NCBI GenBank assembly: GCA_965248915.1
Contig: OZ252216.1
Coordinates: forward strand, 3,349,889 to 3,413,888
Source: Alphaproteobacteria bacterium
GTDB taxonomy: Bacteria; Pseudomonadota; Alphaproteobacteria; M2410
DNA length: 64,000 nucleotides
Direction: 5' to 3'
The translations under genes were made by a program, and so were the position numbers. Every line of letters begins with the position of its first letter. The stretch's first letter is position 1. Shown here piece after piece: positions 15,146 through 33,859 of this stretch. Below the pieces are notes generated by a model. That model had not been told where the DNA came from. It made no database searches and saw nothing but the letters and a program-made list of their open reading frames with translations.

Positions 15146-17371
15146 CTAAAAGTCCATCCTAAGCTCAATACCGAAAGTTCTTGGCTGACCCAATACAGAG
15201 AATTTTTGACCAACAAGCGGATTGGTGAAGAGGTCAAACAACCTGGTTCGGTAAACTTCGTCAGTCAGGTTCTTACCCCACAACGAAACAGCCCAACCGT
15301 TTTCCGAACTAGCGATCATCACACGCGCGTTCACCAACAAATACGGATCGACTTCAGTATCAGGATCTGACGTATCAAGACCCAGATAGTTTGTTCCCTG
15401 ATGAACCAGATCGCCGATAAGCGTCAAGTCATAGTCGCTTGACAATGTCGTGGAATACTCAAGCGTCGCGCCAATCTGATGTTCAGGAGCATTGGGAACT
15501 TTTGTTAACATTTTTGGTATTGCAGGAGGAGCGGCAGGAATTGTCCCTTCATCGAATTCAGTTTCGTTGAAAGACGCAAATCCGCTCAATCGAAGATCAT
15601 CTGTTATGAATGCGACAAATTCCAACTCAATGCCTTGAGAATGAGCCGCGCCGGCATTCGACGTGATTGGATCATAGACAAGCGGTGTTGCGGGGTTGTC
15701 GGAACTCGTCTGAATGTCCTTCCACTCCATATAATATACAGCCCCATTGACCGTGACACGTCCGCCCGCCAGCGTCGATTTGAAACCGGCCTCGTAGTTC
15801 CACAAAGTCTCAGGGTCGAAGGAAATACCCGTCGCATCACCGAGAGCGTCGTTGTAGCCACCGCTCTTAAAACCGCGGCTAATTGTCAGGTAACTCATAA
15901 CGTCATCAGACCAACGATATTTGAGCGAAAGCGTGGGGGTAAACGCGTTCCAATCGTCTGCGTCTTTTAAGTCGACGACCGTACCACCCAATAGAAAAAG
16001 TGGATCGCTTTGATTGTAAGTGATGGACTTTTCTTCGATTGTGTATCGCCCCCCGATGGCGAGCTCGAGACGTTCGGTCATGTCCATGGATACATTCGCA
16101 AAGAGTGCATAACTGTCAACTTCCATTTGAGCGCTGGACCCAACTGTCAAACCATCTAGGAGGGCGGGGTCACCCGTGAGAGCAAACGACAAATCGCTCC
16201 CCAAGGTCACAAAACTCAAATTATCAGTATCCTGATGAAAGTAGTATCCGCCAACAATCCAGTCGAATCTCTGATCGCCTGTTGATGCAAGCCGAATTTC
16301 CTGGCTGGTCCGGGACACGTCTTCCGGATCACCGTCATAGGCCCAGTCAAGTGGGGAAACATCAGTATCGCCGATATTGTAGTACTCGTGGGTTCGGTAA
16401 CCTGTCACACTGATCAAGTCGATACCGTCAAAGGACTTTACGATTTTGAGCGAGACGCCTTTGGCCTCAAGGGTTTCTTCAGATAGCAGGTTGGAATATA
16501 TCCTGCGGTCTTCAGGGTTTGTATTTAGCGGCAGACTGTTGGCGATCAATGTGGCGGTTACAAGCCCGGCCGGATTGTACGACAAAACTTCAAAGTTTTT
16601 GGAATGCTGCTCCACATTTTGATAATCCGCATTAAGTGAAATCTGTAGGCTGTCGGTTGGCGTAAAGTCCAATGCGAGTCTAAAGCCATATCTTTCGGTA
16701 TCATCGACATCCTCACCGAGAAAGACGTTTTCCGTATACCCGCCATGTTCAAACAGCATTGCAGAAAGCGAAGCGTTGAATTTCCCTTCGACAATCGGTC
16801 CGCCGACCACTCCCCTTAGGCGCGTATGATCATAGTCGCCGAACTCAACTTCTACATTGCCGGAAAACTCCGATGGTGGCGCCTTTGACACGATGTTGAT
16901 TACACCACCGATAGTGTTGCGGCCAAAGACAGTTCCTTGAGGTCCGCGCAGGATTTCAATACGTTCGATTTCAAATAGGTCAAAATTGGCGCCGACACCG
17001 GGGCCAAGAAAAATTTCGTCAAGATAATAGCCAACCGCGGGATCTTGGCCCGCCGATCCTGAACTGGCCACAATGCCGCGCAGCGACGTGCCGCCTAATT
17101 TGAGGTCGGTAAAGTTGCCAAAGACCAAACCAGGTGTATGGTGAGCAATATCCTCAAACCCCGTTGCATTCATTTTCGCCAAATCGTCTGACGAAAACGC
17201 AGTGATCGAAATCGGAACATCCTGGATGGACTGCTCACGTTTTTGCGCAGTCACAACGATCTCCTCGATCAATTGAGCTGACACCGGCATAGTGGCCATG
17301 GTTAATGCGGCTATCGTCGCACCATAGACAATTGCATTATGCTTCTTATTGAAGTTCCAGATTGATCTCAT
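15146..17371 (-). CDS. TonB-dependent receptor
   Basis: Signal peptide, plug motif EEIVVTAQKREQSIQDVPISITAF, long beta-barrel region, C-terminal ...GIELRMDF. Confidence 0.9.
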   Translation of the reverse strand: MRSIWNFNKKHNAIVYGATIAALTMATMPVSAQLIEEIVVTAQKREQSIQDVPISITAFSSDDLAKMNATGFEDIAHHTPGLVFGNFTDLKLGGTSLRGIVASSGSAGQDPAVGYYLDEIFLGPGVGANFDLFEIERIEILRGPQGTVFGRNTIGGVINIVSKAPPSEFSGNVEVEFGDYDHTRLRGVVGGPIVEGKFNASLSAMLFEHGGYTENVFLGEDVDDTERYGFRLALDFTPTDSLQISLNADYQNVEQHSKNFEVLSYNPAGLVTATLIANSLPLNTNPEDRRIYSNLLSEETLEAKGVSLKIVKSFDGIDLISVTGYRTHEYYNIGDTDVSPLDWAYDGDPEDVSRTSQEIRLASTGDQRFDWIVGGYYFHQDTDNLSFVTLGSDLSFALTGDPALLDGLTVGSSAQMEVDSYALFANVSMDMTERLELAIGGRYTIEEKSITYNQSDPLFLLGGTVVDLKDADDWNAFTPTLSLKYRWSDDVMSYLTISRGFKSGGYNDALGDATGISFDPETLWNYEAGFKSTLAGGRVTVNGAVYYMEWKDIQTSSDNPATPLVYDPITSNAGAAHSQGIELEFVAFITDDLRLSGFASFNETEFDEGTIPAAPPAIPKMLTKVPNAPEHQIGATLEYSTTLSSDYDLTLIGDLVHQGTNYLGLDTSDPDTEVDPYLLVNARVMIASSENGWAVSLWGKNLTDEVYRTRLFDLFTNPLVGQKFSVLGQPRTFGIELRMDF

Positions 17372-22954: not shown

Positions 22955-25291
22955 CTAGAACCGAACCGTTGCGAGGACTCCGAATTTAGCTGGCTCATTT
23001 ACAGCGCCGAGTGGGAAAGAACCCAAAGCAGAAACCTGTGTGATATGGCGCTCATCGAAAATGTTACTGCCAAAGAGAGACAGCTCGTAGCGATCACCAG
23101 CAGGTGTGAGTGTGAAACGCACATCGACCTCTTCCCATCCTTTCGAACGGAACGTGGACTGATCTTGGTCGGTTTCAGTAAAAAAGACGCTGGACTGATG
23201 CTGGAGACTGACCAACAGATTACCGGAACCCCAGTTGCCAATATCGAACGTGTAGTCGGCAGCCAGATAGAGCTGCCACTCCGGTGCTCGGCTCAGCTTG
23301 TTGCCATCAATACTGACTGGAACAAGTGGGATAGGGGCGCCAATTGGAAACAACAAGCTGTCAGGAACAGCACTCAATTGACCGCCTTGAAACTCGGTAT
23401 GCAGATAGGTCACATTTCCAGTTAACCGAAGCCCGTCAACCGGCAATGCTGTGACCTCCAGTTCGAATCCTGCAATTTCTGCGGCAGGCGCGTTTTCTAT
23501 GATGGCACCACCTGTAGGCACCGGCCGTCTAACCTGCAGATCGGTGTAATCGCTGTAGAATACGGCTAAGTTTGTGCGCAGGAGGTTGTCGAGAAAGTCC
23601 CCCTTCAGTCCGACCTCGATTGTTTCAACGCTTTCGGGCCGAAAGGCAGGGACAAGACCAAAGGAATTGAAACCTCCCGACTTGAATCCTTGCGAGTAGC
23701 TGGCATAAACCAGCATTTCGTCCGACACTTGAAAATCAACCACAGCACGACCAGTAAAATCGTCCCAACTTTCGTCATCCGTGAAGGTTGTTGGTGGAAC
23801 CAAAACAGCGCCTGCGGGGAGTGTCAATCCGCCGAGCGGTGGCGGAACGAACGCAGGTACGGTTCCGCCATTTAGGATGAAAACGACCTGGTTGTTTTCG
23901 AAGTCTTTGTCTTCGTGGCTGAACCGGCCTCCAAAGCGTAGTGTCAATCGCTCAGTGGTGTGAATTGACACGTCGGCGAAGGCTGCATATGCATCCAGAT
24001 CTTGGAAGGCGTCGAAAATGGCGTTTGTACCGAGCCCAAAGAAGCCGTTGATATTGTGGATTTCCAGAGGGCTCATGGCGTTATCTTCATGGAGATAATG
24101 CGCGCCGACAACCCACTCGACACGCTGCTCACCGTTTGAGCGCAGGCGAATCTCCTGGCTGTATTGCTCGTTTTCGAAACGACCGTTGTTGTTGAAATTG
24201 GAAAAACCGCTACCGTCGGAGTCTTGCGCACCGTCGAGCTCCCAACTTCTGAATCCGCTTAGCAGATCCAGTACGACAGAGCCCAAATCCCAGTTTATTG
24301 CTAGTGTGGAACTCCAGGTTTCGGAGTTAGCAAATTGAGGGTCGTTGATGGCGTAGTTGTCGCTATCGAGCATCTGGTCAAGGTCAGGTCGCACGACAAA
24401 GGGAGAAGAGGCTAAGGGGTTATTGATATCGGCAATCTGGAAAGTAAGCGGGACGGCGTTGCGTTTTTGGTACTCGTTTATCAAGTCAATGTTCACGTTT
24501 TCGCTGGCCAGGAATCTAAGCCGCAGTCTGGCCGTAAAATCCTCCGAGCCACCAAGGTCGCTGCCATCGACGATGTTCTTGCCGAAGCCAGAGCGGTCCG
24601 AAAAAGACGCGGCGGCCCGAGCCAATAGTCGATCCGTAACGAGTGCACCCGACACGACGCCCGACACCCGCCATTCGTCCAAGCTCGCCCAACCTGCACT
24701 CACGCGGCCTTCAAATTCTTCCGTCGGTGTCGCCGTATTGACCAGTAAAGCACCAGCAGTCGAGTTTCGACCATAGAGCGTGCCTTGTGGTCCACGGACC
24801 ACTTCGATCGATGAAATGTCGACCAGGTCGGCAGTTGAGAAACTCAATCGGCCAATATAAACACCGTCCACATAAACGGCGACAGGTTCGTCTGCGAATA
24901 TGTTCGCCCCGCCGTTGGCGCCGCCAATGCCTCTAATGCTGAGCGGAGCTTGCGAATAGGCGACAGAATTTGTGGTTACAAACCCCGGCACCAACCCGTT
25001 CAGGTCTTCCAAAGTGTGTACATCTTTCTCAACCAAAAAATCGCCGGTCAAAGGTGTGATGGCAATGGGTACATCTTGGCTACTTTCAGAGCGCCGCTGA
25101 GCAGTAACGACGACCTCCTCGAGTAGTATTTGTCTGTCATTGGATTGCGCCACCGCAACTGATAAGCCGCCCGTGCTCAGCAGGCATGAGGCGGCACCTA
25201 GACTGACAAGATATTTGAGCTTGCGAACCAGGCCCAAGTAGTTTCCACCCACAGGAGGTGAAAAGGCGAACGTAAATGGGGTCATAGACAT
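22955..25291 (-). CDS. TonB-dependent receptor
   Basis: Plug motif EEVVVTAQRRSESSQDVPIAITPL and C-terminal ...LATVRF. Start placed at the ATG of MSMTPFTF; the ORF track starts at a TTG at 25315. Confidence 0.9.
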   Translation of the reverse strand: MSMTPFTFAFSPPVGGNYLGLVRKLKYLVSLGAASCLLSTGGLSVAVAQSNDRQILLEEVVVTAQRRSESSQDVPIAITPLTGDFLVEKDVHTLEDLNGLVPGFVTTNSVAYSQAPLSIRGIGGANGGANIFADEPVAVYVDGVYIGRLSFSTADLVDISSIEVVRGPQGTLYGRNSTAGALLVNTATPTEEFEGRVSAGWASLDEWRVSGVVSGALVTDRLLARAAASFSDRSGFGKNIVDGSDLGGSEDFTARLRLRFLASENVNIDLINEYQKRNAVPLTFQIADINNPLASSPFVVRPDLDQMLDSDNYAINDPQFANSETWSSTLAINWDLGSVVLDLLSGFRSWELDGAQDSDGSGFSNFNNNGRFENEQYSQEIRLRSNGEQRVEWVVGAHYLHEDNAMSPLEIHNINGFFGLGTNAIFDAFQDLDAYAAFADVSIHTTERLTLRFGGRFSHEDKDFENNQVVFILNGGTVPAFVPPPLGGLTLPAGAVLVPPTTFTDDESWDDFTGRAVVDFQVSDEMLVYASYSQGFKSGGFNSFGLVPAFRPESVETIEVGLKGDFLDNLLRTNLAVFYSDYTDLQVRRPVPTGGAIIENAPAAEIAGFELEVTALPVDGLRLTGNVTYLHTEFQGGQLSAVPDSLLFPIGAPIPLVPVSIDGNKLSRAPEWQLYLAADYTFDIGNWGSGNLLVSLQHQSSVFFTETDQDQSTFRSKGWEEVDVRFTLTPAGDRYELSLFGSNIFDERHITQVSALGSFPLGAVNEPAKFGVLATVRF

Positions 25292-25371
25292 CACAGCACT
25301 CCTCGTATTGGTCAACGCAAAGCCGAAGTTAAGGAGGATAATTCAAAAAATAGTCAAAAGTAAAGTTTTAT

Positions 25372-26298: not shown

Positions 26299-26346
26299 AT
26301 TGTATCACAACAATAGCAACTGAGAAAGATGCGGGGTAATTTGTCA

Positions 26347-26841
26347 ATGTCCGTGACCTCAAAGATTCACGAAGTGGTTTTTCGCTGCCAGGGTAGGGCG
26401 GAGGGCAAAATGCGTAGCGCTCTCAGTGTAAGAATGGAAAAGCCATGGTCTGAAACCTATGAGCTGGCAACCGATGAAAGCAAAAGACTGGGCGGTGAAG
26501 GAACTGCCCCGCCACCGCTTGCCTTGTTTGTCGCCAGTCTTGTGGGCTGTCTTATGACTCAGATTAGGTCGGTCGCCAAGCAATGGACTTTTGGGCTTGA
26601 GAAATTAGCAGTAGAAGCGCTTGTCGAATGGGAGGCCGAACAGATCGGCAATAGTCCTTACACGGCGATGCCAAAAGAAATTTCTCTTCAAATCGATGTG
26701 TCTAGCGATGCCCCCCAAGGAGAGGTAAGAAAACTAATAGAGGATGCGCGAAAGTCATGCTTTATCGAACAAACGCTAGGATGCAAGAATGTGATACGGC
26801 ACCGTCTGAGAAGTGAAGACGGTGGGTGGATTGAAATCTAG
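26347..26841 (+). CDS. OsmC/Ohr-family protein
   Basis: ATDESKRLGGEGTAPPPLALFVASLVGCLMTQ matches the OsmC core with its conserved Cys. Start placed at MSVTSK. Confidence 0.7.
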   Translation: MSVTSKIHEVVFRCQGRAEGKMRSALSVRMEKPWSETYELATDESKRLGGEGTAPPPLALFVASLVGCLMTQIRSVAKQWTFGLEKLAVEALVEWEAEQIGNSPYTAMPKEISLQIDVSSDAPQGEVRKLIEDARKSCFIEQTLGCKNVIRHRLRSEDGGWIEI

Positions 26842-26952: not shown

Positions 26953-27195
26953 TCATCCGCCCTTGATTCGCGGGATCAGAAAGACATCGGCGTGTGCCGG
27001 AATCGGCTGTGTCCAGTCGTCACGGTAGATGTCGCCATTGATCGACACGGCTATCCCTTCATCTATGTGATCCTGCATTTCTGGATAGCGTTCAACCAGC
27101 GCGGTAAGCAGTCCATGGATCGTCGATGCTTCGACGTCAATCGTAGCGGCACCGCCAGCTCCGGATCGAAGAGTGCCCGTCAAGCTAACTCGCAT
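26953..27195 (-). CDS. MoaD/ThiS-family ubiquitin-like small protein with C-terminal Gly-Gly
   Basis: 80 aa from MRVSLTG..., ending ...DVFLIPRIKGG*. The start overlaps the last 11 nt of the molybdoenzyme large-subunit gene. Confidence 0.6.
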   Translation of the reverse strand: MRVSLTGTLRSGAGGAATIDVEASTIHGLLTALVERYPEMQDHIDEGIAVSINGDIYRDDWTQPIPAHADVFLIPRIKGG

Positions 27196-29452
27196 GGCTT
27201 GCGTCATCAATGGCCTCAAGAACGCGTGGAGGCGACATCGGCACTTGCGTCAGTCGAACACCGACAGCATCGGCGATCGCATTACCAACCGCTGCAAGGG
27301 GTGGAACGATGGAAGTCTCCCCGACGCCGCGTATGCCATAGGGATGATTTGGATTCGGAATTTCAAGGATCATTGTATCGATGAAGGGCAGATCCGAACA
27401 CACAGGAATGCGATAATCGAGAAATCCCGGATTCTGCAAAACCCCATCCTTCCCATAGACATATTCCTCGTTGAGTGCCCATCCTATACCCTGAGCGGCA
27501 GCGCCTTGAAACTGGCCTTCAACATAGTCGGGGTGAATTGCCTTGCCCGCATCTTGAACCACCGTGTAACGAATAACCTTACTGGCTCCGGTTTCGGGAT
27601 CGACCTCAATATCGCAGATGTGGCTCGCAAATCCAACACCAGCACCATCTGCGGTGACTTCATTGTGGCCAGCGATGGGGCCGCCCGTTCTGTGTGATCG
27701 CGCTGCAATTTCTTTCAGGGACAATGTCGGGAGATTGCCATGCTTCTTGCCTGTGGCTCTGGCCTCGCCATTTTCCCAGGTGACGTCTTCAATCGGAATA
27801 TCCCACATTTTTGCGGCGCGCTCCTTCAACACGTCAATTGCCTCGCGTGCGGCGAATATGGTCGCCATGCCCGAAGAGAAAGTGCCGCGGCTGCCTTCGG
27901 TCGTGTCATTGTGCCCGAGAGAAGCTGAATCGCCGATGCTGGCCTTGACCTGTTCATAGGCAACGCCCAGTTCCTCCGCAGCAATCATGGCCAAAGACGC
28001 GCGTGAACCGCCAACATCGACCGTCCCGACCGTAAGATTGACGGTTCCGTCGGTACCAATATTAAGGTCTGTGCACGTCTGACCGCCAATGTTGAACCAG
28101 AAGCCGCAAGCAACACCGCGGCCCTGGTTCTTCTTGAGCCGAATTTTCATGTGCGGATGGTCCCTCACTGCTTCCAGCGTCGGTTCAATTCCGATCGGAC
28201 CGTAAATGGGACCATAAGGCGCACGGGTGCCTTCTCTGGCAACGTTCTTGAGGCGGAAGTCAACGGGGTCCATGCCAATCTCTTTGGCTAACATATCCAT
28301 CGTGCTCTCGATCGCAAAGGCCGCCATTGGTGCCGACGGGGCCCGGTAGGCCGTACTCTTTGGTCGATTAACGACGACATCCCAGCCTATGGTCTTCATG
28401 TTCTTGATGTCATAACAGGCAAACCCGGTCATGCAGCCAAGCATCGCCCACTGTCCCGGAAACGCACCGCCCTGATATCGCATCTCTGCAACGGCGGCTG
28501 TAATGGTCCCATCCTTCTTTGCGCCAATCTTGACATCAATCGATGTCGACGATGTTGGTCCGGTTGCCCTGAAGACCTCATCGCGGTCCATCACCAGCTT
28601 GACGGGCCTGTTCGCCTTGCGCGAAAGAGCAAGGGCAACCGGTTCCGTCCAGACATGGGTCTTGCCTCCAAAACCACCACCGATTTCCGATGACGTGGTC
28701 TTGAGCGCGGCGAAGTCCAACCCCAACAGCGCAGCACAGGTGTTGCGGAAAGAAAAATGTCCCTGGGTTGTGACCCAGAGTTCTGAGGTCCCGTCAGGAT
28801 TGACCGATGCGAGGCATGCATGGGGCTCAATATACCCCTGGTGTGTCTGGCCGGTCTTGAATGACTTCTCGGTAATAACGTCTGCGTCCTCAAATCCTGT
28901 TTCGACGTCTCCGTTGCCCATCTGCGTTCGGGCGGCAATGTTCGAGGGCTTTTCCGGTTTCGGATCAACGCCTGAAGTGAAGATCCAGTCATGAAGTACC
29001 GGCGCGTCGGGTTTCATTGCCTCGTCCACATCAGTGACGTGGGGGAGTACCTTATAGTCGATCTCGATAAGCTTGAGGGCCTTCTGGGCCGTCCGTTCGT
29101 CGATGGCTGCAACTGCGGCAACAGCGTGGCCGTCGTAAAGTGCCCGGCCTCTGGCCATGCAGTTCTCAAGAATGTTTTGCAATCCAATGTCACCATTTGT
29201 GAGATCGGGAAGATCTTTCGATGTAATGACGGCCTTAACGCCCTTGAGCTTTTCCGCTTTGGAGGTATTGATCTTCCTGATTTTCGCGTGGGCATGAGGC
29301 GAGCGCAGAATGCGGCCAACAAGCTGGCCTGGAGCAAAAGTGTCCGCACCAAAGCGAGCCTTGCCGGTAACCTTGTCCACTCCATCGGGACGCTTGAACC
29401 GGTTGCCGATAACAACAAATTTGCGCTCTAGGAAACTATTGTCATGGGTCAT
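27185..29452 (-). CDS. xanthine dehydrogenase/aldehyde oxidase-family molybdopterin-binding large subunit
   Basis: 755 aa. N-terminal RPDGVDKVTGKARFGAD hammerhead region plus conserved Mo-domain blocks (GGGFGGK, AYRAPS). Confidence 0.9.
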   Translation of the reverse strand: MTHDNSFLERKFVVIGNRFKRPDGVDKVTGKARFGADTFAPGQLVGRILRSPHAHAKIRKINTSKAEKLKGVKAVITSKDLPDLTNGDIGLQNILENCMARGRALYDGHAVAAVAAIDERTAQKALKLIEIDYKVLPHVTDVDEAMKPDAPVLHDWIFTSGVDPKPEKPSNIAARTQMGNGDVETGFEDADVITEKSFKTGQTHQGYIEPHACLASVNPDGTSELWVTTQGHFSFRNTCAALLGLDFAALKTTSSEIGGGFGGKTHVWTEPVALALSRKANRPVKLVMDRDEVFRATGPTSSTSIDVKIGAKKDGTITAAVAEMRYQGGAFPGQWAMLGCMTGFACYDIKNMKTIGWDVVVNRPKSTAYRAPSAPMAAFAIESTMDMLAKEIGMDPVDFRLKNVAREGTRAPYGPIYGPIGIEPTLEAVRDHPHMKIRLKKNQGRGVACGFWFNIGGQTCTDLNIGTDGTVNLTVGTVDVGGSRASLAMIAAEELGVAYEQVKASIGDSASLGHNDTTEGSRGTFSSGMATIFAAREAIDVLKERAAKMWDIPIEDVTWENGEARATGKKHGNLPTLSLKEIAARSHRTGGPIAGHNEVTADGAGVGFASHICDIEVDPETGASKVIRYTVVQDAGKAIHPDYVEGQFQGAAAQGIGWALNEEYVYGKDGVLQNPGFLDYRIPVCSDLPFIDTMILEIPNPNHPYGIRGVGETSIVPPLAAVGNAIADAVGVRLTQVPMSPPRVLEAIDDASHAS

Positions 29453-29955
29453 GTTGCTGCCCTATTCCTTTTTTTCTTTGCCTTGCGCATGTCTTTGGCA
29501 GTCGCTTGGACGGCCCGAACAATCTTGTCATAACCGGTACAACGACACAGGTTACCAGCAAGGGCATAGCGAATTTCCATCTCGTCCGGATCTGGATTTC
29601 TGTCAAGCAGGGCCTTGGCAGCGACAAGGAACCCGGGTGTGCAAAAGCCGCACTGCAGTGCCGCATGTTCAATGAACTTCTCTTGCAGCAAATGCAATTC
29701 GCCGTTTGCAGACAATCCTTCAACGGTTTCCACTTCCCGTCCGCCTGCCTCAACACCGAGGACAAGGCAGGAACAGACCAACCGACCATCCAGCGTGACG
29801 CTGCAAGCACCGCAATCACCAGTGCCGCAACCTTCCTTGACACCGGTCAGGCCCACTCGGTTTCTCAATGCGTCGAGCAGTGTCTCTTCGTTGGGACAGG
29901 CAAACTCTACCGTATCTCCGTTGACAGTTGTTGATACAAGTGTGGTGCCCGTCAT
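29449..29955 (-). CDS. (2Fe-2S)-binding small subunit of the molybdoenzyme
   Basis: Cys clusters CGTGDCGACSV and QCGFCTPG...CRCTGY. 4-bp overlaps with both neighbouring genes. Confidence 0.9.
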   Translation of the reverse strand: MTGTTLVSTTVNGDTVEFACPNEETLLDALRNRVGLTGVKEGCGTGDCGACSVTLDGRLVCSCLVLGVEAGGREVETVEGLSANGELHLLQEKFIEHAALQCGFCTPGFLVAAKALLDRNPDPDEMEIRYALAGNLCRCTGYDKIVRAVQATAKDMRKAKKKRNRAAT

Positions 29956-30812
29956 GCCGTTCCCTCTGCTCTTTTGAGTGCTATTTTTGCAACACGGCGC
30001 GCCATCACGCCAGCGATTCGTTTCCGGTAAGCGGCGGTGCCGCGTTTGTCATCAATAGGCCTGCAGGCCGACGAACAAGCAGCCGCCAGATTGTCCAACG
30101 CAGATTTGTTGACTTTCGTACCGATGAGAGCATCGGCCGCTTCCGGCGCCAGGAGGGCCGTTGGGGCCACCGCACCGAGGGCAACACGCGCTTTCTTCAC
30201 AAGACCGTCCTCCAGCGAAAGGCATATGCCAATGCCAACGACAGCGATGTCCATTTCTGTTCGGGGGATAAACCTGAGATAGGCATCACCCGTGTGCTTA
30301 CTTGGATTTGGCAGCATGATCGCCTCGATCACTTCCGCCTTCGTAAGGGATGTTTTCCCCGGACCTGTAACAATGTCTTCGACCCGAACCGTACGCCGTC
30401 CGTTCGCGCCAACGACAACCGCTTTTGCGCCAGCTGCAATGAGTGCCGGCACACTGTCGGCCGCCGGCGATGCATTGCATAGGTTACCAACAATGGTGCA
30501 ACGCCCCTGGATCTGGTCAGACCCAATAAGATTTGCTGCCTCAACGACCCCAGGCCAGACCTTTTTCAGAGCTTTGTGCTCACCGAGTTCAGCGCAAGAA
30601 ACCGCAGCTCCGATGCGAAACCCTGTTTTGCGGGTTTCGACGGTCCTAGCGGCAGGAATACGCTTGATGTCGATCAGCAGATCTGGTTCGACCATGCCTG
30701 TCTTCATCCCGACCAACAAGTCAGTGCCACCTGCGATGACGCAAGCCTTGCCTTTCTCGTTCTTTAACAACCCGACGGCCTCTTTGATCGTCGTGGGCGC
30801 TTCATATCTCAT
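29952..30812 (-). CDS. FAD-binding medium subunit of the molybdoenzyme (CoxM/XdhB-like)
   Basis: MRYEAPTTIKEAVGLLKNEKGKACVIAGGTDLL is the typical N-terminus. The ORF track starts 6 codons upstream at a TTG (30830). Confidence 0.85.
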   Translation of the reverse strand: MRYEAPTTIKEAVGLLKNEKGKACVIAGGTDLLVGMKTGMVEPDLLIDIKRIPAARTVETRKTGFRIGAAVSCAELGEHKALKKVWPGVVEAANLIGSDQIQGRCTIVGNLCNASPAADSVPALIAAGAKAVVVGANGRRTVRVEDIVTGPGKTSLTKAEVIEAIMLPNPSKHTGDAYLRFIPRTEMDIAVVGIGICLSLEDGLVKKARVALGAVAPTALLAPEAADALIGTKVNKSALDNLAAACSSACRPIDDKRGTAAYRKRIAGVMARRVAKIALKRAEGTA

Positions 30813-31204: not shown

Positions 31205-31432
31205 AGTGCAATCAGCGTTATGATTGTGCCGAGATCGTACGGGAAGCACCAAGAGAAAGAGATTTGTATTTCTATCCGGGCATGTTTCTCATGTATCAGC
31301 GCTTCGGAAATCAGTCGCGCAAAAGGGAACTATTTTAGGGGATTGTTGCGCCCGTGAATTGAGAACAGCGACTGAGTGTCGGTGTTTGAGGGACGTAAAT
31401 CACATATCTTGATGAAGGAACAGGAGGGGAAA

Positions 31433-33859
31433 ATGACGAAACTACAAACATCTATGGTGATGCTCTCAGTGATCATAGGGGGGGCGATCGGACTGACAAG
31501 CATTGCTCAGGCACAGATCGAGGAAATTACGATTACGGCCACCAAACGGGAGGCGTCGTTGCAGGATGTTCCGATCGCGGTCACAGCAGTGTCCGGAGAG
31601 GAACTCAATCTTGCCAATATCAGCGATATCAACGATCTTCAGATCACGGCGCCAAGCTTGTATATCAGCACAACGAACACGCCTTCGGTTAGTACGACGA
31701 TCCGTATTCGCGGCGTCGGGACGACTGGCAACAATGTTGGGCTTGAAGGAGCTGTCGGGGTCTTCCTTGATGGCGTTTACAGAAGCCGCGCCGGTATTGC
31801 ACTTGGCGATCTCATTGACATTGAGCGGATCGAGATCCTACGTGGACCCCAAGGTACTCTGTTTGGGAAAAACACGTCTGCGGGCGCAATTTCGGTCGTC
31901 ACCAAAGCACCTTCCAATGAGTATGAGGGCTATGGCGAAGTGATGGTGGGCAATCATGATGCTCTCAAGATAAAGGGCATGATGAACTTGCCGCTAATAG
32001 ACGACAAATTAGCATTGCGTTTCTCCGGCGCGACGAGTGAGCGTGATGGTTTTCTTGAGGATGTCGTGAATGGCCGCACTTACAACGACCGCGATCGCCG
32101 GACATTCAAAGGGCAATTGTTGTGGACGCTGAACGATGACATCAATATCAGGGTCATCGCCGATTATGCGGAAGCCGATGAACATTGCTGTCAAACGGTC
32201 AGGGTTTTCAATGGGCCGACGGCGCCTGCAGTGAGTGCTTTTGCACTTGGCAGCGGCAACGCTTTCTTCTCCCCACCAAATCCAGGGGCCTTCAAAACGT
32301 CAATCGATGGACCGGTCTTCAACGAATTCCGTGATCGCGGTTTTTCGGTGGAGCTAAATTGGGATATTGGTATTGGCACGTTGACCTCTATCACATCGGA
32401 CCGGAGTTTCGACTCCACTACGAATAACGATGTTGATTTCACTGGGGCGAGAATTCTTAACCAGCTCACAATCTTTAACAACGAACAATTCAGTGAGGAA
32501 TTGAGAGTTGCCGGACAAATTGAAGGTGGTGGATTCCTTCAGTCGATTGACTGGCTCATCGGTGGTTACTATTCGGACGAAAAGTTCTTGCGCGACAATA
32601 GGCCGACATTTGGGGCGGATACCGATGGTTATGCGACACTCATATCGGGTGGCTCATTGGCGGGCGTCTATTTGGCTGGAACCGGCACTTCCGGAATCTG
32701 GCACCAAGAGGGCGATTCGAAATCTGTCTTTGGTCACGTGACGTTTACTTTGGACGATCAATGGGCCTTGACTGGTGGCATACGTTGGAACAGTGATGAA
32801 AAAGAGGGCGACGGAACCCTTAGCGTAACGCACCTTGCGACGGGTCCTGTGCTAGGCGCTCTATTTCCGTTTCTTCCGCCGCAACATGATTATGTGGCCT
32901 CGACATCTGAAGAAGAACTGTCCGGCACGATCAATCTGCAGTACAACTGGAACGACGATATCATGACCTATGTCAGCTATAGCCGCGGATACAAGGCGGG
33001 TGGTATCAACTTGGATCGCAGTGCTGCAGGCTCATTGAACGCAGCAATTCCGGTCATTGCAATTACGTCTGATCCGGCAAACTTGCCATATGTCGCTGGG
33101 ACTTATGCGACAATTCCGTGCGGTGCGAGAGGTGGTGCGTATCTCTTCACCGCAGTCGTCGGAGTAGCCCAAGAGTTTTACGGTTGCTCACCCAAGGATG
33201 CGACTTTCTCGCCTGAGTTTGCCGATAGCTACGAAATTGGCATTCGCTCATCCTGGTTCGACCATCGATTGAACTTCAACGTCACAGCGTTCTACTCGCT
33301 GTTCGAAGACTTCCAACTGAATACCTTCGACGGTCTGGCCTTTAATATTGAGAATGTGTCTGGCGCTTCCACGCGCGGGATCGAGGCGGAGTATGTCTTC
33401 AGACCGATTGAGGGCCTGTCGATTACCGGCGGTGTGAATTGGGTCGAGGCGCGTTACGACGATGATGTCGGTCCTCCTTCGCCGGCAGACCCGCCATTAG
33501 GTGGCAAGGTCTTAACCAACGCACCGCAGTTCACCGGAAGCACAGCGATTACGTATGAACGCGGTCTGGCCAATACTGATCTCATCTGGTACTCGCGCGC
33601 TGAGATGTTCATGTCCACGGGCCGCGAAACCGGTTCGGACCTCGATCCGGCCAAGCATGTTGGTGGCCGCCAAATCTACAATGGACGTCTTGGCCTGAGA
33701 AACGACGATACGGGTTGGGATCTTTCGGTTTGGTGCCGCAATTGTTTGGATAAGCGGTATACGACCGTCATCTTCGATTCGGTTGCACAATCCGGCAGCT
33801 ATGACGCCTTCATAGGTAACCCGATGGAATGGGGGCTATCCGCCTCAATGCGCTTCTAA
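31433..33859 (+). CDS. TonB-dependent receptor
   Basis: ATG at 31433 preceded by AGGAGGGG. Signal peptide, plug motif EEITITATKREASLQDVPIAVTAV, C-terminal ...LSASMRF. Confidence 0.9.
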   Translation: MTKLQTSMVMLSVIIGGAIGLTSIAQAQIEEITITATKREASLQDVPIAVTAVSGEELNLANISDINDLQITAPSLYISTTNTPSVSTTIRIRGVGTTGNNVGLEGAVGVFLDGVYRSRAGIALGDLIDIERIEILRGPQGTLFGKNTSAGAISVVTKAPSNEYEGYGEVMVGNHDALKIKGMMNLPLIDDKLALRFSGATSERDGFLEDVVNGRTYNDRDRRTFKGQLLWTLNDDINIRVIADYAEADEHCCQTVRVFNGPTAPAVSAFALGSGNAFFSPPNPGAFKTSIDGPVFNEFRDRGFSVELNWDIGIGTLTSITSDRSFDSTTNNDVDFTGARILNQLTIFNNEQFSEELRVAGQIEGGGFLQSIDWLIGGYYSDEKFLRDNRPTFGADTDGYATLISGGSLAGVYLAGTGTSGIWHQEGDSKSVFGHVTFTLDDQWALTGGIRWNSDEKEGDGTLSVTHLATGPVLGALFPFLPPQHDYVASTSEEELSGTINLQYNWNDDIMTYVSYSRGYKAGGINLDRSAAGSLNAAIPVIAITSDPANLPYVAGTYATIPCGARGGAYLFTAVVGVAQEFYGCSPKDATFSPEFADSYEIGIRSSWFDHRLNFNVTAFYSLFEDFQLNTFDGLAFNIENVSGASTRGIEAEYVFRPIEGLSITGGVNWVEARYDDDVGPPSPADPPLGGKVLTNAPQFTGSTAITYERGLANTDLIWYSRAEMFMSTGRETGSDLDPAKHVGGRQIYNGRLGLRNDDTGWDLSVWCRNCLDKRYTTVIFDSVAQSGSYDAFIGNPMEWGLSASMRF

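Follow-up and report, generated by a model that had tools for sequence, protein, structure and literature searches.

Description of the locus

The window, i.e. the whole stretch of DNA analysed, is 64,000 nucleotides long and occupies C1:3349889-3413888 of a 3.7 Mb genome. A small gene at 26953..27195 (-) encodes a MoaD/ThiS-family beta-grasp protein of 80 aa. By translation, the product starts with MRVSL and ends with PRIKGG, the stop codon following GG directly. From its ATG, at 27195, the small gene shares its first 11 nt with the 3′ terminus of the gene for the Mo subunit (27185..29452 (-)). Translation and coordinates thus confirm both the reading frame and the overlap given in the preliminary description. 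An alternative in-frame ATG is present upstream at 27207 and gives 84 aa and a 23-nt overlap with the Mo gene. Six nucleotides before it, within the terminal part of the Mo gene, stands GAGG (27214..27217 (-)), by sequence reading a possible ribosome-binding site for ATG 27207. Homologue alignments start at the methionine of MRVSL; the database copy of the protein is annotated with 84 aa. Because of this 84-aa call and the GAGG-preceded ATG, the start codon is given as 27195 or 27207.

Three genes for the subunits of a molybdenum hydroxylase precede the small gene. The large, molybdopterin-binding (Mo) subunit (755 aa) belongs to the xanthine dehydrogenase (XDH) family and has the Pfam domains Ald_Xan_dh_C, MoCoBD_1 and MoCoBD_2. 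The [2Fe-2S] small subunit (29449..29955 (-), 168 aa) has Fer2 and Fer2_2. The FAD-binding medium subunit (29952..30812 (-)), identified from its translation, has FAD_binding_5 and CO_deh_flav_C; its start is taken as ATG 30812, TTG 30830 being also possible. The FAD, FeS and Mo genes overlap one another by 4 nt; with the overlap of the small gene added, all four cistrons overlap on one strand, and the small gene is the fourth cistron of the operon, as had been proposed. It is also the last, because the next gene downstream is OsmC-like and convergent. A scan for promoters and terminators returned no more sites than shuffled sequence.

All Pfam domains of the three subunits score above their cut-offs, which identifies the products as a heterotrimer of the XDH/CO-dehydrogenase family. 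The Mo subunit carries, at 709-712, a conserved GVGE motif that presumably holds the catalytic glutamate. Its best solved relative is the alpha subunit of 4-hydroxybenzoyl-CoA reductase (1rm6_A, 345 bits). The 4-hydroxybenzoyl-CoA reductase equivalogs score 476 against a cut-off of 994.55 (alpha), 118 against 404.55 (beta) and 182.5 against 257.8 (gamma), and the beta equivalog matches only in two pieces. Every NCBIfam equivalog score of the Mo subunit lies under its cut-off. An aryl- or heteroaryl-CoA, or the corresponding kind of acid, is a reasonable guess for the substrate.

Conservation and selection of the small gene

Close homologues of the small protein form 99 clusters with 51-81% identity. 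Among 1.84 billion representatives, 587 clusters matched the profile at E ≤0.001, of which 157 at ≤1e-10; the gene family is thus widespread as well as well defined. The median dN/dS of the small gene is ~0.08 (49 pairs). Differences per site are 0.35, 0.24 and 0.63 at codon positions 1, 2 and 3, the third being the most variable. The gene is under purifying selection and strongly conserved. A chance or untranslated open reading frame, which would have undone the preliminary description, is ruled out by this conservation and the low dN/dS, together with the ThiS match and the GG-stop in 80/80 loci described below.

Family, fold and C-terminal tail

Member of the ThiS/MoaD superfamily, with a predicted fold of the MoaD/CysO/SAMP1 type. 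The HMM assignment proposed earlier gives Pfam ThiS (PF02597) above its cut-off (28.3 bits vs 22.5), profile positions 1-76 being covered. The best NCBIfam match is the SAMP1 model (NF041918), with 23 bits vs a cut-off of 60; it is accompanied by the archaeal-MoaD model TIGR01687, with 22.2 bits vs 49.5, which is the only MoaD model among the NCBIfam matches of the protein. The AF2 model is a beta-grasp with a pLDDT of 89.7. Foldseek aligns this model to CysO, SAMP1 and MoaD at TM 0.75-0.83 with probability 1.00, and to ThiS at 0.53; solved MoaD chains rank among the top structural matches. The protein differs from canonical MoaD in its sub-cut-off MoaD-model score and in not being encoded beside moaE.

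Only G54, G79 and G80 are invariant in a diverse alignment of 67 members, in which the consensus of the tail is EVxLLPRIxGG. With its pattern [LF]-P-x-[IVM]-x-G-G, the tail is similar to that of the window genome's own MoaD, FPPVTGG. A stop codon follows directly after GG in 80/80 related loci, these being the best 80 of 332 stretches. An exact C-terminal GG is the hallmark of E1-activated carriers. The invariant G79/G80 and the GG-stop in all 80 loci argue for chemistry at the C-terminus.

Residues beyond GG occur in a few members (P0154, P0139; L129, G054:C1), as GGCS, GG followed by ~35 aa, and GGGAAS. Such extensions are either masked C-termini that would require a peptidase or artefacts of gene calling or sequencing.

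Linkage to the enzyme across genomes

A pattern scan with one genome per species gave 332 stretches with a relative of the small protein, and the best 80 loci were analysed. The arrangement is the same throughout: in 79/79 loci with upstream DNA the genes for FAD, FeS and Mo subunits precede the small gene in this order and on its strand. The Mo gene and the small gene overlap in 30 of the 79 loci (28 of them by the same 11 nt as in the window) and are 0-30 nt apart in 30 more. Clustering of the flanking ORFs of the 80 loci revealed no further conserved neighbour; an enoyl-CoA hydratase (16/80) comes closest. The remaining flanks consist of assorted catabolic genes that vary by lineage. No sulfur-accepting enzyme, dedicated E1, E1-rhodanese fusion, JAMM peptidase or desulfurase is conserved near the 80 loci, and no XdhC is present in their flanks.

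The order is retained in distant relatives. Within the window's class it is the same in 5/5 loci, the small protein being 35-44% and the Mo subunit 55-66% identical. In a metagenome subgroup (31-34% identity, mostly soil/peat) the Mo subunit is directly upstream in 60/62 loci with room. In the plasmid collection both genes are found on the same 37 records, including pSymA of Sinorhizobium meliloti and the megaplasmid of Ruegeria pomeroyi DSS-3 (module SPO_RS21915-21930); RefSeq labels the small gene on plasmids as 'MoaD/ThiS family protein'. Among the matches listed, only this enzyme clade has an adjacent ThiS-family gene, 65 further Mo-subunit matches standing outside the list.

Two singleton proteins appeared as natural fusions of the Mo subunit and the small protein. 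Both are artefacts, because the junction reads as a frameshift into the frame of the small gene.

The module of the window nests, with strong support, within modules of marine Gammaproteobacteria/Pseudomonadales MAGs. It is present in 3/7 sampled genomes of the window's own family, which is titled Alphaproteobacteria. Because of this nesting and the patchy presence, the whole module, small gene included, looks like one that was horizontally transferred.

Enzymes with and without the small gene

The Mo subunit was searched in 301 genomes of the class, of which 52 have homologues (42-100% identical). The small gene lies just downstream in 29/30 of the best Mo loci (≥56% identity). At 42-55% identity it is in the fetched stretch in 2/20 loci, and one of these two is a second Mo paralogue just downstream of the small gene of another module. 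This paralogue (L126/L150, G193:C55:8010-13755; 53% identity) follows the MoaD-like gene and lacks FeS and FAD genes of its own.

A tree built from 117 Mo subunits places the carriers of the small gene in one clade of 102 rows, which includes two small subclades without it; the sister clade (11 rows) and the outgroups are also without the gene. Presence and absence on this tree require 4 changes vs 21 in shuffles, row L031 being coded absent although its locus has the small gene. The low number fits a single old recruitment. No copy was found anywhere in 4 genomes from the subclades without the gene. The copy-free genomes, together with the sister clade and subclades without the gene, mean that the protein is dispensable for very similar enzymes. 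It is an old, clade-specific, losable accessory.

No residue of the Mo subunit varies with whether the small gene is present, and therefore no docking site is indicated. T713, next to the glutamate of GVGE, was considered as such a residue and rejected: it is a trait of one subclade, and basal carriers have V or A like non-carriers. In clades without the small gene, the DNA that follows the Mo gene yielded no replacement accessory gene.

Other carriers and cofactor-maturation genes of the genome

Four ThiS-family genes are present in the window genome: moaD, thiS, the window gene and a gene for a GG protein beside a BNR-repeat protein. The canonical moaD, whose product ends with PPVTGG, is followed by moaE (C1:2054885-2055485, next to uvrC); thiS adjoins thiG. 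A single MoaE (C1:2055144) and a single MoeB-type E1 without rhodanese domain (C1:3177704) are encoded. The genome thus has a single MoeB and, with MoaD, ThiS and the window protein, several carriers. In BLASTP the window protein matches the genome's own MoaD with 17.7 bits over 31 residues. Canonical moaD stands beside the sole moaE also in 20/20 other carrier genomes tested. The possibility raised in the preliminary description, that the gene is the only housekeeping moaD of the organism and merely located here, is ruled out by these separate moaD-moaE pairs.

XdhC, ThiF/MoeB, MoaE and CoxE are absent from the window, as stated earlier, and all copies in the genome lie outside it. XdhC genes are at C1:998721 and C3:6307, and a CoxE-like gene is at C1:2635001. 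The one ThiF match in the window (18.8 bits) is a weak match to a Rossmann motif. No good JAB-family match was found in the genome. Four XDH-family enzymes are encoded in the genome, and the XdhC of contig 3 lies beside one of them. Per genome examined, XDH-family Mo subunits number 3-22 and XdhC genes only 1-3. Presence of XdhC is not discriminating, every genome tested having at least one.

The XdhC of C1 and a MocA-type NTP_transf_3 domain are encoded on the same strand ~1.8 kb apart (C1:996422-998924), away from XDH-family genes. The stretch is a possible general locus for maturation of the MCD cofactor. Given an unlinked XdhC near a MocA-type gene, the window enzyme need not lack a conventional route of maturation, and conventional sulfuration and insertion may be available to it too.

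The fourth GG beta-grasp protein (C1:282842-283066; L004:1498-1758, -) has 86 aa and ends with ALRGG. Its ThiS score is 21.6 bits, just below the cut-off, and its gene is directly downstream of that for a 325-aa BNR/Asp-box repeat protein, a further puzzling partnership of a MoaD-like gene.

Comparison with known systems

MoaD-family proteins encoded beside a pterin oxidoreductase are known from tungsten enzymes, the nearest precedent for the window gene. MoaD genes strictly adjacent to tungsten AOR have been described, with no XDH-family context given (Iyer, Burroughs, Aravind 2006; PMC1779556). AorD and AorE are putative maturation factors, and addition of aorDE raised the specific activity of recombinant AOR from 4.5 to 16 U/mg (PMC9295118). 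In Thermococcus kodakarensis, TK1065 is flanked by AOR on one side and by a radical-SAM gene on the other (PMC11323500). The protein of the window resembles AorD of Aromatoleum aromaticum and TK1065/UblC in being a GG MoaD-family protein beside one pterin oxidoreductase, extra to housekeeping Moco synthesis. It differs in its enzyme, which is of the XDH family, with one-pterin Mo, FAD and 2Fe-2S subunits, and not a tungsten bis-pterin AOR. It also differs in having no radical-SAM partner (AorE/TK1064) and no linked MoeB or MoaE. The tungsten-versus-molybdenum rationale does not apply here.

Searches of full-text literature found no description of a MoaD paired with the XDH family, and searches by presumed locus tags of the Sinorhizobium and Ruegeria modules also gave no paper. 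This agrees with the preliminary description, in which the arrangement was not recognised as a described one, though the gene itself is already annotated in RefSeq under the MoaD/ThiS family name.

Escherichia coli MoaD (1fm0/1jwb) is similar in fold (TM 0.79-0.81), in size (~80 aa) and in a C-terminal GG after a Pro-containing hydrophobic tail; unlike it, the window protein is not encoded beside moaE and is extra to the canonical pair. CysO of Mycobacterium tuberculosis (3dwg, TM 0.82) and SAMP1 of Haloferax volcanii (3po0, TM 0.75) are also top structural matches and end with GG. They differ in an identity of only 17-25%, and no partner of the CysM/Mec or UbaA type is conserved near the small gene. 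XdhC/PaoD/CoxF-type chaperones handle cofactor sulfuration and insertion. They are accessory to XDH-family enzymes, and the small protein may fill the same slot; they are of unrelated fold and family, and none is present in the window or in the 80 flanks. Among solved structures the Mo subunit is closest to HcrCAB (1rm6), and CoA ligases, CoA transferase and enoyl-CoA hydratases occur in the window and in some related loci, but the equivalog scores given above are far below their cut-offs.

Proposed role and alternatives

Most likely, the protein is a specialised paralogue of the sulfur carriers of MoaD type that is co-produced with the Mo subunit and has this hydroxylase as its only target. 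That it serves as a maturation factor dedicated to the enzyme and working through an activated C-terminus is considered somewhat more probable than its negation. Restriction to one clade, pairing down to ~31-35% identity and no swap for copies of host MoaD argue for a factor dedicated to the enzyme and not for general supply.

XDH-family hydroxylases need a terminal sulfido ligand and tend to lose it in air. In the favoured mechanism the single MoeB-type E1 would adenylate the C-terminal glycine, and a persulfide donor would turn the adenylated C-terminus into a thiocarboxylate. The flexible ...PRIxGG tail would then hand the sulfur to the enzyme's own Mo centre. The likeliest chemistry would be to install or restore the terminal Mo=S (sulfido) ligand. 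Activation by MoeB, formation of the thiocarboxylate and the acceptor of the small protein are points that we infer, and the sulfido ligand in this enzyme clade is assumed from the family. A sulfido-donor step with the enzyme's Mo centre as acceptor is a tentative proposal, possible and rather doubtful. Direct donation of Mo=S from the C-terminal thiocarboxylate to the enzyme-bound cofactor, by a route that would need no XdhC-type chaperone and no cofactor sulfurase, is a little more doubtful still.

The preliminary description had put forward a dedicated sulfur carrier for Moco or its sulfido ligand. Fold, terminal GG and exclusive linkage are all consistent with it, and do not separate it from its rivals. 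It had also held that XDH-family enzymes generally need a dedicated maturation or sulfuration factor. The unlinked XdhC near a MocA-type gene and the close relatives without the small gene qualify the proposal.

Cofactor supply in place of enzyme-specific maturation would make the protein a second small subunit of MPT synthase, activated by MoeB and pairing with the housekeeping MoaE, which would boost supply when the operon is induced. Its MoaD-type fold, with solved MoaD chains among the top structural matches, and a tail like the FPPVTGG of the genome's own MoaD speak for such a subunit. Paralogues of MoaD adjacent to AOR have been so read (PMC1779556), and MoaD-family Ubls of Thermococcus contribute to synthesis of the tungsten cofactor (PMC11323500). 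General supply does not account for why only one of the 3-22 XDH-family enzymes per genome has the gene, or for a family that is tied to its enzyme clade down to ~31-35% small-protein identity and shows no replacement by host MoaD. The protein is barely alignable to host MoaD (17.7 bits), canonical moaD is replaced in 0/20 genomes, and there is no second MoaE. An MPT-synthase role is therefore regarded as unlikely. Less likely again is a sulfur-free role as assembly chaperone or fourth subunit, in which the body of the protein would bind the apo Mo subunit and the GG tail would plug the cofactor or substrate channel, keeping the apoenzyme competent for insertion. The MoaD tail occupies the channel of MoaE in this manner. 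Cistron overlaps in 30/79 loci, with 30 more within 30 nt, suggest that the protein is produced in concert with the Mo subunit; its exclusive tie to the enzyme and the lack of a linked dedicated E1, JAMM peptidase, rhodanese or desulfurase point the same way. However, a C-terminal GG in 80/80 loci, as the sole invariant pair, exceeds the needs of a plug, and the protein has not become stably fused to the enzyme in evolution.

A role in the pathway around the hydroxylase is very improbable. The protein would deliver sulfur to a metabolite, as QbsE, PdtH and CysO do, or be conjugated to proteins, as SAMPs and TtuB are. CysO and SAMP1 are among its structural neighbours, the SAMP1 model is its best NCBIfam match, though far under the cut-off, a few members have residues after GG, as in QbsE, and the window, with its TonB-dependent receptors, is a catabolic island. 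Against such a role, the 80 loci share no conserved sulfur-accepting enzyme, E1-rhodanese fusion or JAMM peptidase, the flanks vary between lineages, and the genome has no good JAB-family match.

The dedicated maturation factor, as the preferred reading, bears on a wider question. To our knowledge, acquisition and retention of the sulfido ligand in bacterial XDH-family hydroxylases are understood only for a few enzymes with an XdhC-type partner. A conserved, enzyme-specific paralogue of MoaD is a testable candidate for a missing step of maturation or repair. If the proposal is true, ubiquitin-fold sulfur carriers gain a new kind of acceptor and wider uses, and XDH-family enzymes a route of sulfuration or repair in place. 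Co-expression of the small gene may be needed for active recombinant enzymes of the clade, cf. aorDE with AOR. The module is carried by Sinorhizobium meliloti (pSymA) and Ruegeria pomeroyi DSS-3 (megaplasmid) and is thus genetically tractable, so that the question is open to ordinary genetics and protein chemistry.

Surroundings of the operon

The window is an uptake-plus-catabolism island. Three TonB-dependent receptors are encoded within 19 kb, at 15146-17371 (-), 22955-25315 (-) and 31376-33859 (+). Interleaved with the receptor genes are those for two CoA ligases, a CoA transferase of family III, a MaoC hydratase, an FAA hydrolase and a TetR regulator; the window also encodes a thiolase-like protein. 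The OsmC-related protein at 26329-26841 (+) scores 103 bits vs 95 with the 'OsmC-related (seleno)protein' model; its gene is not conserved beside the module elsewhere.
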